Below are positions 1 to 6,227 of a stretch of 64,000 bases of DNA, piece after piece. The DNA is from an uncultured Candidatus Rokubacteria bacterium (GTDB lineage Bacteria > Methylomirabilota > Methylomirabilia > Rokubacteriales > CSP1-6), in NCBI GenBank assembly GCA_963789955.1, contig CAWBMV010000022.1, forward strand, positions 352,001 to 416,000, written 5' to 3'. How positions within the stretch are numbered: the first letter of the stretch is position 1; each line of letters starts with the position of its first letter. Made by a program: the position numbers and the translations under genes. Under the pieces are notes generated by a model, which saw only the letters and a program-made list of their open reading frames with translations, made no database searches and was not told the DNA's origin.

Positions 1-105
1 GAAGCGCTCTTCGAGATGAGCCGCACGGATGCCGGTATGCTCAAGTCCTTCGAGGTGCGATTCAATGTCGACGCCGACGGATTCTGGCGCGTGCGGTCGT
101 TCTGA
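1..105 (+). CDS. 3' end of upstream protein (partial), ends ...FEVRFNVDADGFWRVRSF
   Basis: Open frame 1 from the window edge to TGA at 103-105, GC-rich third positions, 10 bp before the next gene. Confidence 0.7.
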   Translation, partial: EALFEMSRTDAGMLKSFEVRFNVDADGFWRVRSF

Positions 106-115
106 GATCTCGCTG

Positions 116-696
116 ATGCGCTCCGTTCTGATCGCGCTGATGTTCCTGATCTCGCTCCTGATGCCTCGATGGACCGAGGCGGCCGGGCCCTGGCAGGCGC
201 AGGTGGTCAGCGCCGATTCAAAGCAGCCACTCGAGGGCGTGGTGGTGCTGGCCTGGTGGACGCGACACGTTCGCAGCCTCGGAGGTCCGAGCGAGGAGTA
301 CCGCGATTCGCAGGAAGTCCTGACCGACAAGGACGGCCGCTTCACGATCGAGTCGCGCTGGTTCTTCAGCCTCAATCCGCTGGTGTTCTTCCGCGGGCCG
401 TTCATCGCGATGTTCAAGTCGGGGTACGGGGATTACGGATGGCCCGGCTACACGGGATCGGAGACGTGGCCCAACGAGAAGCGCAAGGCGCTTCAGACAG
501 AAGCTCAGCTGCTGCAGCTCGATGGGATCGTGCTGGAGATGCCGGTCTTGCCCAACACCGAACAGAGAGCGAAGTACCTCGACGCATCTCGAGGCCCGTA
601 TTTCGGGCGTTCCTCACGACAGACGCCCGCTGATGCAAGAGGCGATCGATGGAAGAACGGAAGGCGCTGGAATCCCGTGGCCGGATTCAGCGGTAG
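116..696 (+). CDS. Secreted protein with a carboxypeptidase-regulatory-like (prealbumin-fold) N-terminal domain; frameshifted near the 3' end
   Basis: Signal peptide MRSVLIALMFLISLL..TEA; motif QVVSADSKQPLEGVVV...TDKDGRFTI; correcting indels near 590 and 651 gives ...MQEAIDEERKALESRGRIQR-stop (694-696). Confidence 0.65.
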
Positions 697-705
697 GGAG
701 GTCTC

Positions 706-3089
706 GTGATCCAACCGGAGAAACTCGTCGCGACCGTGTGTGCAGCCGGAGTGCTGGGCGCTGTTCGGGACGGCGGACGTTGCGCTGTCGTACGCGCCCG
801 CCACCCACGCCGAGATCGGCAGGATCGCCGTCGTCCGCTCGGATCTGGACGCGATCTTGAAGGCTCAGTATCGCGTCGACCGCGGTGCGACGTTCGTCGT
901 CAACGGAGAGACTGTTCAGACCTGGATCGCGATCGGCGCGACGCGCGAGGATTTCCCGGCGACCCGGTCTCTCAATCACTTTCACAGTCCGCTGAAGCCA
1001 TGGGCGAGCGCCGGCGGACTTCTCGGCCAGTCGTCCGTCTACTGGCAGCAGAACCCGGATCAAGGCCTCGGCGGCACATGGTCATGGCCTGTCGCTCGTC
1101 AGCGATTGTTCGAGTTTCTGACCCTGCCGACGCCGGCGGCGCGGGAAGGAGCGCTTGCGGACACCGCTCGGGCTCTCGGGCAGGTCATGCACATGGTTCA
1201 GGATGCGGCGTCACCGGCCCACACGCGCGAGGATCCGCACCTGCTCCACGACGGATACGAAGCTCGTATCGAGGAGCTCCGAGCGAGTCGCGATGCGACG
1301 CTCCGGTCCCGCTTCCAGGCGTTCCTGGATGCTTCATCGACGTTGCCGTCGACCTCGATCTTCACGCCGACGGGGGATCCGCGGGCGCCGGTTCCGGTCG
1401 CGAGGCTCGTCGACAGCGACCGGTACGCGGGCACCGTGCCATCGTATTCGGTCGGGGCCGACGCTGGCCTGGCCGAGTACACCAGCGGTGGCTACGTGAG
1501 CGACGACACGATCTTCCTGGGGTTCGCGCTTCCGCGCCGCGAGAGCCTGGGCCCGGCGGTCTTCGATCCGCCGGCCGACACTCCGGGTGCGCGGCGCTAT
1601 TTCCCGAAGACGACCGATGGCGACACGGTCAGTCACTTCGTCGCCGAGGGAGCGTTGTACGAACGTCTCCTGTTTCGCGGGCAGCTGGTCGGCGGGTTCA
1701 TGCTCGACGACAAGGTCTACGAGGACTACGCGGCTCGATTGATCCCTCGCGCGGTGGGCTATTCGGCCGGCCTCCTGAACTACTTCTTCCGAAGCAGCTT
1801 CGACTTCACCGTAGACGTGATCGGCAACGATGCGAGCGCGCGGCTCCTGACGATCAGCATCCCGCCCGAGCTCACCGCGGAGACGATGGACGGGACCTTC
1901 ACCCTGTACGCCGAGGACAAGAACGGTCTGCGGAGCGCCGTCGCCGGAGCGTCGATCACGACCACGCTATTCCGGGGAGCGTCTACCCAGGCGATCTTCA
2001 CGCCCGTCTCCGGCGTGCGTGCATACGTGCTCGTGTTTCGAGGCACGCTGGGCGCCGAGTCCGACGCGGTGACCGGCAAGGTCAAGCCGATGGGCCCGTT
2101 CGTGGCCGCGTTGCAAACGACGGCCGAGTTCACCGGCGAAGCGACGCGCGCGACCGTGACGGAGGTCGACAACGCGTCGACGCTCATCGTCATGGAGACG
2201 CTGTCGAAGGACGCGCGGCAGCAGCGCGCCAAGGGATCGTTCTTTTCGTCCACGAACGATCCCGGGCAGCATCTCAAGCGCGTATCGCTGGAGTTCGATC
2301 CCAGAATCGTCGGCGCGGCGCCGGTCCGACTGCTTCTGGACGACATCGATGTCGGCGTCGCATGGAGCCGAGAGGGCACGCCCCTCGAGAATCCCAGCCG
2401 ATGGGAGGTCCGAATCGACCTGCCGGTGTTCTTCGGCGGCGGGGGGATCCTCGTGCCGAACGTCCCGCGGTTCTTGGCCGTCGAGACCCTGGAGGGGACC
2501 ACGATCAGGACCCCGCTCGTCTGGTGGCGCAGCGTGTCCTCGGTCAACGAGGCCCGAGGAGGCCGGCGAATCCGTGACCGGGTGTCCGCTGGAGCTCCAG
2601 TGCGAACAGGTGGTCAGCAACAGTACCGTGCTGCACGGACTCGTCTTCTTCGGCGACGGGAACGGCGAGGGGCGTGACACCACCTCCTCCGGCCAGCGCC
2701 AGCCCATGACCGCGCCGCACACGGCGGTCGGCTTCATCCCGACGGGCGTGGTCGCGGGGTACAGCGTGGGAACCGACGAGCAGACCGGAAGCCTCAACTG
2801 CTTTGCCGGGTGTGTGCCCGCCGCTTCGTGCACGGCCAGCACCGTCAGGGTCTTCGCCGAGTCGCGAGCGGAGGGGCGTGTGTGGATAAAGGACGAATTT
2901 TCGATCAGCTCCAGTACTCTGAGTGGCGTGCATACGGTCGCGAACGCCTGTGCCCGGCCGGCCGCGGGTCAGCCCGTCGCCCCTGATCTGCCGGAGCTGA
3001 GATTCCGGCGTGACTACTTACCGGCGGAGCAGAGCCGATTTCAGGAGTTCGGGGTGACACCGCCCGAGCACGAGATCACGCTCCGATGA
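706..3089 (+). CDS. Large secreted protein: N-terminal Zn-dependent phospholipase C / S1-P1 nuclease-like domain plus beta-rich, Cys-containing C-terminal region; two frameshifts
   Basis: GGAGG RBS, GTG 706, signal peptide, mature start YAPATH; ED...NHFH, HMVQDAASPAH and HDGYE motifs; ORFs 706, 740..2677 and 2349..3089 join at about 757 and 2560. Confidence 0.7.
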
Positions 3090-3658
3090 ACGCTGCGTCT
3101 ACATGGACGGCGCGGGGCCGACTGCACCAGGCGCTGCTGGTCTGCGTCGTTCTGGTCGGTGCGGCCGGCTGCCTCTATCCCGGCGCCGACGTTCCCTACG
3201 TCCAGACTCCGACCGACGTCGTCACCGAGATGCTGCGGCTCGCCACCGTCGGCCCGAACGACGTCGTCTACGACCTGGGCTCGGGCGACGGGCGCCTGGT
3301 GATCGCGGCCGCGCGTGATTTCGGCGCGCGCGGTGTCGGCATCGAGATCGATCCCTCGTTGATTGCGCTGAGCACGGACGCGGCGCGGCGGGCTGGCGTC
3401 GGCGACCGCGTGACGTTTCGCGCGGACGATCTCTTCGAGACCGATCTCTCGGACGCCACCGTCGTGACGCTCTATCTCTCGCGCTCGATCAATCAGCGAT
3501 TGCGCCCCAAGCTCCTGCGCGAGCTGCGGCCGGGCGCGCGCATCGTCTCGCACAATTTCGACATGGGCGACGACTGGATGCCGAGCCAGACCAAGCAAGT
3601 CTCGTCGCGCGATCGTCTGGTGACGGTGTTTCTCTGGGTGATTCCGCCGAAATCGTAA
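3086..3658 (+). CDS. Class I SAM-dependent methyltransferase with a lipoprotein-like signal
   Basis: VYDLGSGDGR motif I, GIEID, DVPYVQTP; hydrophobic N-terminus ending AAGC; ATGA overlap with the previous gene. Confidence 0.85.
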   Translation: MNAASTWTARGRLHQALLVCVVLVGAAGCLYPGADVPYVQTPTDVVTEMLRLATVGPNDVVYDLGSGDGRLVIAAARDFGARGVGIEIDPSLIALSTDAARRAGVGDRVTFRADDLFETDLSDATVVTLYLSRSINQRLRPKLLRELRPGARIVSHNFDMGDDWMPSQTKQVSSRDRLVTVFLWVIPPKS

Positions 3659-3882
3659 TCGCTCGCGCCTGAAACGAGCGTCGTGTTGTTGCGAGCGCGT
3701 GACGTTGGTGTTCCACGCAGCGGAACTTTCTGTCTCACTCGTGAGAACGCGCGTTCAGGTATTTCACTCATTGACTTCGAGCGACCGCATCGAGGATTCT
3801 CCTGGCGCTAAATCGAGAGATCCACTGGTTCCGTCCTGCAGAACGGTCCGCGCGTGACGCGGACAGACGCAAGGAGGTTCTC

Positions 3883-4931
3883 ATGCGGTTCTCGCCACAG
3901 GCTCTTCGAGCGATCGAGCGGCGCAAGTTCTTGAAGCTCATGGGAGGCGCGGCGAGCGGCGTCATGGCGCTCGGCAGCGGCGGCTCGTTCGTGCGCGCGC
4001 GCCGCGCGGAAGCGCAGGTGGCCCTCACGCCCTTCGTCGACGCGCTGCCGATTCCCGACGGCATCAGGCCCAGCGGCACGTTCGACGGCGATCCGCTCTT
4101 TCAGGTGACGATGCAGGTGTTCAGGCAGAAGCTCCATCGCGACCTGCCGCCGACGACGCTCTGGGGCTACAACGCCCAGTACCCCGGCCCCACCTTCGAG
4201 GCGCGCCGAGGCCGGCCCATCGCCGTGCGCTGGATGAACAATCTGCCGAACCGCCACATGTTCCCGATCGACAACACCTTGCACGGCGACGAGGCGGGAC
4301 AGCCGGCGGTGCGGACGGTCGTGCACCTGCACGGACACAAGGTGTTGCCGGAGAGCGACGGCTATCCGGAGGCGTGGTTCACGAACGGCTTCGGGCAGAC
4401 CGGGCCGTTCTTCGAGCAGCGGATCTACCGGTATCCGAACGACCAGGCGGCGACGCAGCTCTGGTACCACGACCACGCGCTCGGCGCCACGCGGATCAAC
4501 AACTACGCCGGGCTCTCAGGCGTCTACCTGTTGCGTGACCAGGTCGAGGGCAATCTAAATCTGCCCGACGGGGCGTTCGAGATTCCCCTGATCATCCAGG
4601 ATCGGTTCTTCAACGCCGATGGCTCGCTGCTGTATCCGGTCGAGGACGACGGTGGTGACCCGGATCCGCGCGTGCCGCCCGTCTGGATCCCCGAGTTCTT
4701 CGGCGATACCGTGCTGGTCAACGGCTGATGTTCAAGGTCGGCAAGCGCCACAGCGGCCGCGACGACAGCGAGATTCCCCGATCGCGGGCGCAGGTGCCGC
4801 TGCTCGATCCGCGGGCCTCGGTGAAGCCCCGCGATCTGGTGCTGAGCGAGCTCGACTCGGCCGATCCGTTCGAGAACCCGATCATCGCGCTCATCAACGC
4901 GCCGTGGTCCGATCCGGTGACCGAGACGCCG
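3883..4931 (+). pseudogene. Tat-exported CotA/bilirubin oxidase-like multicopper oxidase, internally deleted and truncated
   Basis: RRKFLK Tat motif, VHLHG and WYHDH copper motifs, stop after FFGDTVLVNG; 4728-4931 encodes a CotA-like domain 2/3 linker ending WSDPVTETP; C-terminal copper motifs absent. Confidence 0.8.
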
Positions 4932-6227
4932 AGCCTGGTCGTGCTCCTGCTGGCGACCGGCGCCGAGCTGCTCGCGCGAACCCAGGCGATGAGCGGTGCG
5001 GCGCTCGCCGCGAGCGTCGCCGCCGTCCCGAGCGTCGTGACGCAGACCCACCTGGGCCAGATCCTCGCAGCGCGGCTGGTGGCGGTCGTAGTCGCCCTGC
5101 TGCTGGCGTTCGAGGCGGGCCGCGCGTTTCGCGCCTTCGTCCTTCTCGTCGCGCTGGCCATCGCGCTGTCGATGAGCCTCACCGGACACGCGGCCGACTG
5201 GGGCGACGTGACGCTCAGCGTCGGCGTCGACTGGGTTCACGCCGTGGCGGCGTCCGCGTGGACGGGCGGTCTCATCGCGCTGGCGTTCGCGGCCGGGCGC
5301 CGCGGGGCTGGGTGGTCACGTGAGTCGCTCGCCACCGTCGCGCCGCGCTTCTCGCGGCTGGCCGGGCTCTGCCTGCTCGCGATCGTCGTGACCGGAGGCT
5401 ACAACGCGTGGGCCCAGCTGGGCGGCCTCTCGCGGCTGTGGAGCACCGCGTACGGTCGGGTCCTGATCGTGAAGCTTCTGATCGTCGCGGTGCTGGTGTG
5501 GCTGGGGGCCGTCAACCGCTACGCGCACTTGCCACGGCTCGCGCCGGCGCAGGCCGTCCGCGGCGTCGGCGCGCGGGCGTTCCAGCATGTCACGCCTCGC
5601 CCTCTTCGGTCCCAGCCGAGGCACGCCGTCAGTGCCGGCGGAGTCGCAGCTTGTCGCGTACGTCACGATCGAAGCGCTCGTCGGCCTCGCCGTGTTCGCG
5701 TGCACGGCCGTCCTGGGCGAAGTCACGCCGGGGCGCCACGTCCAGTTCGAGCGCAGGCCGACGACGCACGTCGCACCGGTCGCGCGACCCGGTGGGGGCG
5801 GACCGCGGTCGGGCACCGTGACGCCGCCGCGCGGGGACGCCGCACACGGACGAGCGGTCTTCGGCAGGCTCGAGTGCGCGACGTGTCACGCGATCCCCGA
5901 CACGCAGTTCTCGGCGCCGATCCGACCGGGGCCTGACCTGGCCGGGATCGGCGGACGCCACCCGGGCGAGATCGTCGAGTCGATCATGAACCCGAACGCG
6001 CAGATGCTCGACGGGCCGGGCTACACCAATGAGCAGGGGCTGTCGACGATGCCGGACTATCGAGACCAGCTGACGGTAGGGGAGCTGATCGACCTGGTCG
6101 AATACCTGAGAGGCTTCGAAGCGCCCGCAGCACCCGCGCCGCCTGCGACGCCCGGACGCCGATGCCGGCGCCCCGCCGCGCCGCCCCGGCGCCGGCCACG
6201 CCCGAGCAACCGACGCCCACGCGGTGA
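4932..6227 (+). CDS. CopD-family membrane protein fused to a C-terminal cytochrome c; lacks its own N-terminus; frameshifted
   Basis: SLTGHAA, DWVHAVAASAWTGGL, STAYGRVLIVK (CopD-like); CATCH heme motif, GPDL and distal Met (TMP); frameshifts near 5585 and 6160. Confidence 0.75.

Follow-up and report, generated by a model that had tools for sequence, protein, structure and literature searches.

Does the stretch from position 706 to 3089 of this DNA, in which a coding sequence is spread over three reading frames, hold a real gene, and if so, what might its product do? The window, by which we mean the whole 64,000-nucleotide stretch under analysis, belongs to the assembly of an uncultured Candidatus Rokubacteria bacterium (G000, 6.8 Mb in 38 contigs). 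A preliminary description had read the locus as an exported phosphodiesterase of the phospholipase C (PLC)/nuclease P1 type that becomes legible once two indels are repaired. We refer to it as gene C and to the two genes ahead of it as A and B (Table 1). Alignment by tblastn with the best relative, the intact 793-aa protein P0003 (97% identical), switches frame near 759 and near 2568, in agreement with the two indels, and the 2384 nt of 706-3089 exceed a 793-aa gene with its stop by two bases. The 740-2677 ORF accounts for mature residues 1 to about 590 and holds the entire head in a single frame, and a second ORF (2349-3089) supplies the final 173 residues; the helical block quoted earlier, YEDYAARLIPRAVGYSAGLLNYFFR, is found in the translated sequence as described. 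Because natural 793-aa relatives are intact, at identities of up to 97%, we conclude that gene C is real and not spurious. The expectation that its frameshifts would hide the family from annotation did not hold, as ORF 740-2677 covers the head and the intact relatives are likewise named 'hypothetical protein'.

The frame breaks themselves could mean that the copy in the window is a true pseudogene cluster in this organism, a reading that concerns the copy and not the family. Relative to its relatives, the window's assembly carries eight +1 sites across the 5.2-kb three-gene cassette, or about 1.5 per kb against about 0.6 isolated +1 sites per kb elsewhere in G000, and two stretches downstream, of 1.2 and 4.3 kb, are without any insertion. 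However, all eight changes are +1, with zero deletions and zero nonsense codons, and the bias runs through the assembly: 99 isolated +1 gaps were counted against 21 isolated -1 gaps in 12 regions compared with two relatives (167.5 kb aligned), with up to 11 in 4.1 kb. A public soil contig that is 98% identical over 422-3700 has one base fewer at 583, 649, 759 and 2568, the four insertions inside its span, and contigs of two other runs confirm one-base differences at about 648, 759 and 2567. The insertion bias and the absence of nonsense codons therefore indicate long-read assembly error; the two frameshifts in gene C are almost surely of this kind, and a pseudogene is highly improbable. The rate of single-base insertions across G000 calls for caution with any frameshift-based finding from this assembly. 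Gene C is single-copy in G000, where a search with PF00882 found nothing. Contigs from RNA libraries cover much of the gene (one spans 1160-3657), contigs being no proof of transcription; a promoter scan of the locus found none, and its terminator-like sites lie within about 1.3 sd of shuffled sequence.

Table 1. Features at the start of the window, in window coordinates.
Feature	Position	Strand	Basis or remark
Gene A, 3' end	1..105	+	secreted; NHL propeller, Ig and PKD-type repeats, 107-aa NTF2-like end
Gene B	119..696	+	small secreted protein, about 190 aa; breaks near 583 and 649
GGAGG, ribosome-binding-like site	697..701	+	sequence; 5' of GTG 706
Gene C, signal peptide	706..790	+	28 aa in intact relative; first frame break near 759; no propeptide
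Gene C, PLC/P1-fold catalytic head	791..1792	+	mature 1-334; model, structure search, conservation
Head codons	H6 806; E53-D54 950; H63 977; H134 1190; D138 1202	+	
Head codons, continued	H144 1220; H150 1238; E157 1259	+	
Gene C, conserved Ig/FN3-like beta sandwich	1793..2098	+	mature 335-436; Z 7-9 to Ig-like domains; tail exchange at its end
Gene C, variable tail	2099..3089	+	about 330 aa; second frame break near 2568
Six tail Cys codons	2583, 2601, 2799, 2811, 2829, 2949	+	
Class I SAM methyltransferase	3086..3658	+	hydrophobic leader; overlaps gene C stop (ATGA)

A search with the mature part of C found 432 proteins among 8,000 scored candidates. Every source-given name among the 120 matches listed is 'hypothetical protein', and several of these come from Rokubacteria or Methylomirabilota. 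The sources of the relatives are soil and sediment, most genomes carry one copy, and presence inside one genus is patchy (9 of 16 relatives). Family size came to 3,535 clusters at E ≤ 1e-3, 1,834 at 1e-10 (clusters at 50% identity) and 641 at 1e-30. Bit scores against PF00882 were 15.6, 16.9 and 18.8, under the cut-off of 26.8, although 21 of 50 family members match it at E ≤ 0.05 (best, 7.4e-4), and NCBIfam returned no family for five C proteins. Judged by sequence, then, the family is large, unnamed and scores beneath the Pfam cut-off. Literature searches covering mostly freely readable papers, and a term search of PMC12419801, turned up no description of the family or of its cassette.

An AlphaFold2 model of mature residues 1-436, built from a 110-sequence alignment, reached a pLDDT of 95.9 and consists of a helical domain up to residue 332 followed by a beta sandwich. 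When this model was searched against 48,161 chains, the top match was the Clostridium absonum alpha-toxin (1olp; Z 17.9, rmsd 3.1, 213 aligned), and high scores were also obtained for the PLCs of Bacillus cereus (1ah7; Z 17.8) and Listeria monocytogenes (8cqm; Z 16.2) and for the nucleases SmNuc1 (Z 13.5), 3w52 (Z 13.2) and S1 (Z 12.0). These six superfamily members align over 213-219 residues, and the next unrelated row has Z 9.0. All 10 Foldseek matches at E ≤ 0.001 are clostridial alpha-toxins (E 4.6e-6 for alpha-toxin), with whole-model TM-scores of about 0.3. A profile of the first 169 residues, made from 50 rows chosen by a pattern that includes the His-Asp-His loop, matches Listeria PLC at E 3.3e-4 and pairs D54, HFHxP and HxxxDxxxxxH with the PLC motifs; profile searches of the head matched PLCs and no nuclease. 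Single-sequence searches of the PDB with head and tail gave chance matches alone, and atlas matches for the head are unnamed clusters at 0.90-0.91, which serve as leads only. The PLC/P1-like fold proposed earlier is thus borne out by the model, the structure search and the alpha-toxin matches. We conclude that the gene C product belongs to the PLC/P1 superfamily, nearer its PLC branch, and consider it very probable that it has both this fold and an active metal site.

The residues that had been named for that site (Y1, H6, D54, H63, H134, D138, H144, H153 and E157) are all present at those mature positions, and the conservation anticipated for them was found at H6, D54, H63, H134, D138, H144 and E157. 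Across 110 rows H6, E53, D54, H63, H134, D138, H144, R146, D148, H150, D208 and E229 are invariant, and E157 is kept in 102 of 109 relatives. H153 did not survive as a ligand: it is His in only 50 of 120 relatives and in 6 of 11 near ones, and in 98 distant relatives His is outside the four commonest states there. We rejected it as a variable position, whereas H150, which stands 6 to 21 residues ahead of E157, is His in 109 of 109 relatives. The ligands of B. cereus PLC are given as Trp1, Asp55, His69, His118, Asp122, His128, His142 and Glu146 (PMC10420013); the His-x3-Glu pair of that enzyme is not conserved here, an invariant RxDxH loop with H150 is in its place, and from the alignment H150 would substitute for His142.

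Of 255 relatives, 213 allowed position 1 to be placed, as Tyr in 160, Phe in 32 and Leu in 21; among these 213, residue -1 is Ala, Ser or Gly in 196 and a hydrophobic leader (median, 25 aa) precedes it in 211. A rule-based call from the leader statistics of the 255 relatives agrees with the cleavage directly before Tyr1 that had been predicted, and because the leader ends right before position 1 in the relatives, there is no propeptide. Maturation by signal removal alone is a likeness to S1 nuclease (PMC5201275).

C shares its fold with the PC-PLCs of B. cereus and Listeria (Pfam PF00882), along with equivalents of Asp55, His69, His118, Asp122, His128 and Glu146, the HFxxP motif and a free N-terminal aromatic residue. 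It differs from them in its RxDxH loop, a second His at position 6, a head about 90 residues larger, the Ig domain and tail, an identity of only 13-14% and the PF00882 scores given above; PC-PLC also has a propeptide and C does not. The choline pocket of PC-PLC is Glu4/Tyr56/Phe66, and positions 4 and 55, mapped to choline-pocket sites by sequence alone, are variable in the relatives of C. The clostridial alpha-toxins (1olp, 1ca1) are the best structural match and likewise consist of a helical PLC head and then a beta-sandwich domain, at 17% identity to C. The C-terminal domain of alpha-toxin is a C2/PLAT domain, whereas the second domain of C, folded jointly with the head, best matches Ig/FN3-like sandwiches (Z 7-9). 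In addition, C has an exchangeable third module and two partner genes, and nothing about its source, an uncultured bacterium of soil, points to an animal host.

The same fold would also suit a secreted nuclease or nucleotidase of the S1/P1 kind, kept on surfaces by its tail and by A, whose role is to harvest DNA or RNA outside the cell. SmNuc1 (8qjl), the plant bifunctional nuclease (3w52) and S1 (5fb9) match at Z 12.0-13.5, and C has their early His, with a P1-like spacing of His6, as well as a basic residue after the catalytic Asp. Arg59, which is invariant and comes after Asp54, and Phe64, which follows His63, are reminiscent of Asp65/Lys68 and Phe81 of S1 (PMC5201275), with Arg59 five residues after D54 where S1/P1 nucleases have Lys/Arg three after the Asp. 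However, the PLC scores lie 3-6 Z units above those of the nucleases, the profile searches match PLCs and no nuclease, and the HFxxP motif is as in PLCs. The nucleoside-site Asp is not invariant either (position 66 is N/D/S; the S1 Asp83 site is Asn in 68 and Asp in 21 of 98 distant relatives), and C is multi-domain. We therefore regard a nuclease as unlikely, and find it likelier, as a matter of inference, that the substrate of a PLC-type C is lipid or envelope.

Beyond the head, the protein had been described as continuing into a Cys-containing C-terminal region with a targeting or adhesion tail. The Cys residues are found in the tail and not in the Ig domain or head: all six lie inside the last 170 residues, past the second frame break, and each is retained in 56-58 of 58 full tails of the window's tail family, consistent with three disulfides. 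Variability is evident, since 201 of 255 relatives extend to the Ig-domain end and the 191 with a tail of at least 60 aa sort by BLAST into 52 tail families, which indicates exchange. Pfam recognises NHL and PD40 propellers, TIG, FG-GAP and Ig repeats among the tails; besides P0003, 4 of 9 stored family proteins scanned have no Pfam match. In P0105 and P0228, identity is 92% as far as residue 490, yet the two are unrelated past the Ig-domain end; this switch could be an assembly chimera, but it lies where members of the family usually change tails. Heads that share only 39-41% identity with P0003 occur within the window's tail family, and heads at 50-59% bear other tails. On a FastTree tree of 115 heads, 22 tail changes were counted, where the minimum would be 7 and shuffling gave a mean of 39, using the 60 rows of the eight tail families with at least three rows and leaving 55 rows uncounted. 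Tails thus cluster on the head tree yet have been repeatedly exchanged. The window's tail family is stable across its 58 relatives, unlike fast-cycling toxin loci, and a profile of it matches no other tail family. With known tails as queries, no orphan tail cassette was found in any of the 47 loci that have 1 kb or more downstream, and the sole downstream match (L062) is that locus's own tail, frameshifted. This natural head-tail exchange hints at a modular enzyme scaffold.

Gene C is rarely alone. Gene order in 92 related loci is ABC in 45, ABBC in 13, BC in 13, C in 11, BBC in 4 and AC in 2, with four single variants, the short forms being mostly at contig ends. Where at least 2 kb lie upstream, A is present in 42 of 42 loci and B in 41 of 42; with 700 nt upstream, B is present in 69 of 72 and missing from L041, L063 and L076. 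A is retained without B in L041, L063 and G210. Among 151 genomes of the phylum, the A domain occurs in 61, C in 67 and both in 57, where 27 would be expected if they were independent, which kin are not. A lies within 4 kb upstream at 58 of 79 C loci (collapsed by hand from the match table, with four second-piece A rows excluded), and 7 of the other 21 start no more than 170 bases from a contig end. Three genomes flagged as unpublished (G117, G089 and G065) are part of these tallies; without them the counts are A 59, C 64 and both 55 of 148 genomes, and 57 of 76 loci. In a second phylum, that of a Desulfobulbaceae genome, 11 of 251 genomes have a head match at E ≤ 1e-21 and A is directly upstream in 10 of the 11; six weak head matches there, with neither A nor B within 1.5 kb, were kept outside the family. 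The cassette is present too in one Nitrospinota and one Flavobacteriales record.

Gene A, which starts about 2.2 kb ahead of the window, encodes 338 to 2,246 aa in the loci called, with frames reaching about 2,900 codons, and NHL, beta-helix, cadherin-like, Ig or PKD matches were found in 10 of 12 A proteins scanned. Its last 107 aa always form a domain in which a G, a W and the terminal F are invariant. A model of this domain (pLDDT 96) has an NTF2-like fold, and the top rows of its structure search are NTF2/cystatin-like (Z up to 10.2, 93-104 of 107 aligned), which places it in the NTF2-like superfamily; atlas matches for this tip fall under 0.9 and are leads only. B proteins show a carboxypeptidase-regulatory-like match, below cut-off, in 7 of 9 scanned, and NCBIfam gave nothing above cut-off for A or B. 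Of the three genes B diverges fastest (mean identity 37% vs 46% and 44%); it is duplicated in tandem in 17 of 92 loci, with copies 31-78% identical, and several loci have the arrangement B, truncated C, B, C. We rejected B as a strict lipoprotein, a lipobox-like Cys being found in 10 of 83 B leaders. A complex prediction of C (head and Ig domain) with B scored 0.13 (mark, 0.32), which is evidence neither way. Partial correlations of pairwise identity over 43 loci (A-B given C 0.00, A-C 0.69, B-C 0.61) carry no weight, because kin are not independent and because C is both the longest sequence and the least noisy. The presence of the same two partner genes almost always ahead of C suggests an undescribed cell-surface system for membrane attack or harvest, and the products of A, B and C probably act as one system.

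Several loci depart from the usual layout. On a Flavobacteriales-binned contig (L041) an A-C pair without B sits amid frames that look Rep-, ParA- and MobA-like by eye, which suggests plasmid carriage or misbinning. Loci L115, L154, L156 and L098 show either local tandem duplication, in the order B-C'(truncated)-B-C, or a C fragment that separates A from B; in L154 there is almost no difference between the B copies or between the 5' parts of C. At G050:C29, G027:C104, G037:C116, G038:C11 and L085, A is separated from B by an additional, short A-type gene of 137-312 codons that has an NTF2-like domain of its own. Downstream of C at L120:11090-13408, a B-like domain is fused to a long HEAT-repeat array, and at L076:1-1230 C stands without A or B and with an apparent HTH and HipA-type gene on the opposite strand (by eye). 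The window's own assembly holds a distant orphan B with a leader (G000:C36:9048-9788, which is L157:4048-4788; E 2.8e-9), and the 10 kb around it gave no match to A or C. Other secreted PLC-like proteins, more distantly related, have the same HxRxDxH loop in frames of 400-2,900 codons (L148-L153); they are sister families with neither A nor B nearby.

We propose that C would be a Sec-exported three-zinc phosphodiesterase, with zinc binding predicted from the ligand set. Signal cleavage would free the amine of Tyr1 and so complete the metal site, as the fold and the S1/PLC precedent suggest; the other ligands would be H6, D54, H63, H134, D138, H144, E157 and probably H150. Having no propeptide, the enzyme would be armed on export. 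The Ig domain would hold the exchangeable tail, which would decide the target surface. A would be an extended surface protein or stalk, and its constant NTF2-like tip would most likely be the docking site of the enzyme; we pair that tip with the constant head because A and C vary only in their outlying modules. A PLC-type enzyme that crosses the periplasm without a propeptide would have to be restrained or helped, a role that suits B as a periplasmic guard or chaperone; its absence from three loci argues against an absolute need. Upstream periplasmic immunity genes of secreted lipase effectors are known (PMC6560169). The likeliest job of C would be to remove lipid head groups, or to cleave other phosphodiesters of the envelope, on debris or on neighbouring cells within contact range, and its purpose may be attack, phosphorus harvest or both. 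Against this model stand the low whole-model TM-scores, the loss of His-x3-Glu, the nuclease-like His6 and invariant Arg59, and the loci without B, which a strict immunity gene would not allow. For the model as a whole, a surface-deployed PLC-type enzyme with exchangeable tail, stalk A and guard or chaperone B, we put the chances at about even.

Known conflict systems offer partial parallels. Tox-HET-C is also a PLC/S1-P1-fold domain deployed in conflict, with HxD and HxxxDxxxH motifs (PMC3482391) where the C family has HFH and HxxxDxxxxxH; Pfam scans of the family gave no Het-C match. Like polymorphic toxins, C has a recombining C-terminus, and as in those systems and in T6SS Tle/Tli pairs there is a small secreted gene upstream that is sometimes duplicated (PMC6560169). 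NTF2 folds serve in polymorphic toxin systems as immunity domains. B resembles an immunity gene in being adjacent, secreted, fast-diverging and duplicated, yet it is missing in 3 of the 72 loci with 700 nt upstream. The layout is inverted relative to polymorphic toxins, as the enzyme of C is constant and N-terminal and the variable part is non-catalytic; C also has a Sec signal, and no orphan cassettes were found in the 47 loci. More speculatively, the cassette may be an undescribed surface system of uncultured bacteria, made up of 'stalk, guard and warhead'. On this reading it would be a polymorphic toxin with its layout inverted: the PLC-fold enzyme, constant and without a propeptide, would be re-aimed through tail swapping, borne on the NTF2-like tip of a variable adhesin and restrained by a periplasmic partner, for contact-range attack on the membranes of other microbes. 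We advance this only tentatively.

Other cells need not be the target. If C acted instead on its own envelope, or on a phosphodiester anchor in the NTF2-like pocket of A, and so matured or shed A as an adhesin, the cassette would be a system for surface display and release. A is the most constant partner (42 of 42 loci) and is retained where B is missing; it has adhesin-type repeats, in 338 to about 2,900 codons, before its constant C-terminal domain; and there is one copy in most genomes. This reading, which we think has a small chance, somewhat above that of a nuclease, leaves unexplained the dozens of unrelated binding-type tails on C and the tandem B and B-C' duplications. Quite improbable is a harmless exoenzyme that scavenges phosphorus from small phosphodiesters, with B a mere folding helper and nothing attacked. 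Soil and sediment sources, the constant head, the 0 of 47 result for orphan cassettes and a dispensable B would all suit it, but the patchiness within one genus, the shuffling of tails and the amplification of a partner gene are more typical of conflict genes.

The PLC-type surface enzyme favoured here would give a function to a large dark family, with C present in 67 of the 151 genomes sampled from an abundant, uncultured phylum of soil bacteria, as well as in lineages outside it. It would add to the PLC/P1 superfamily a branch with an altered third-zinc loop and without a propeptide, and the three-gene cassette offers a direct test of neighbour interaction or of organic phosphorus mining by such bacteria.

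Downstream of C, the methyltransferase at 3086-3658 has a leader that ends AAGC, lipobox-like by eye; it follows C in close relatives only and is probably outside the cassette. At 3883-5000, a frame resembling multicopper oxidases, with a leader of twin-Arg type as judged by eye, ends at 4728 and continues into a CopD-like membrane frame, as if large pieces had been deleted or misassembled.
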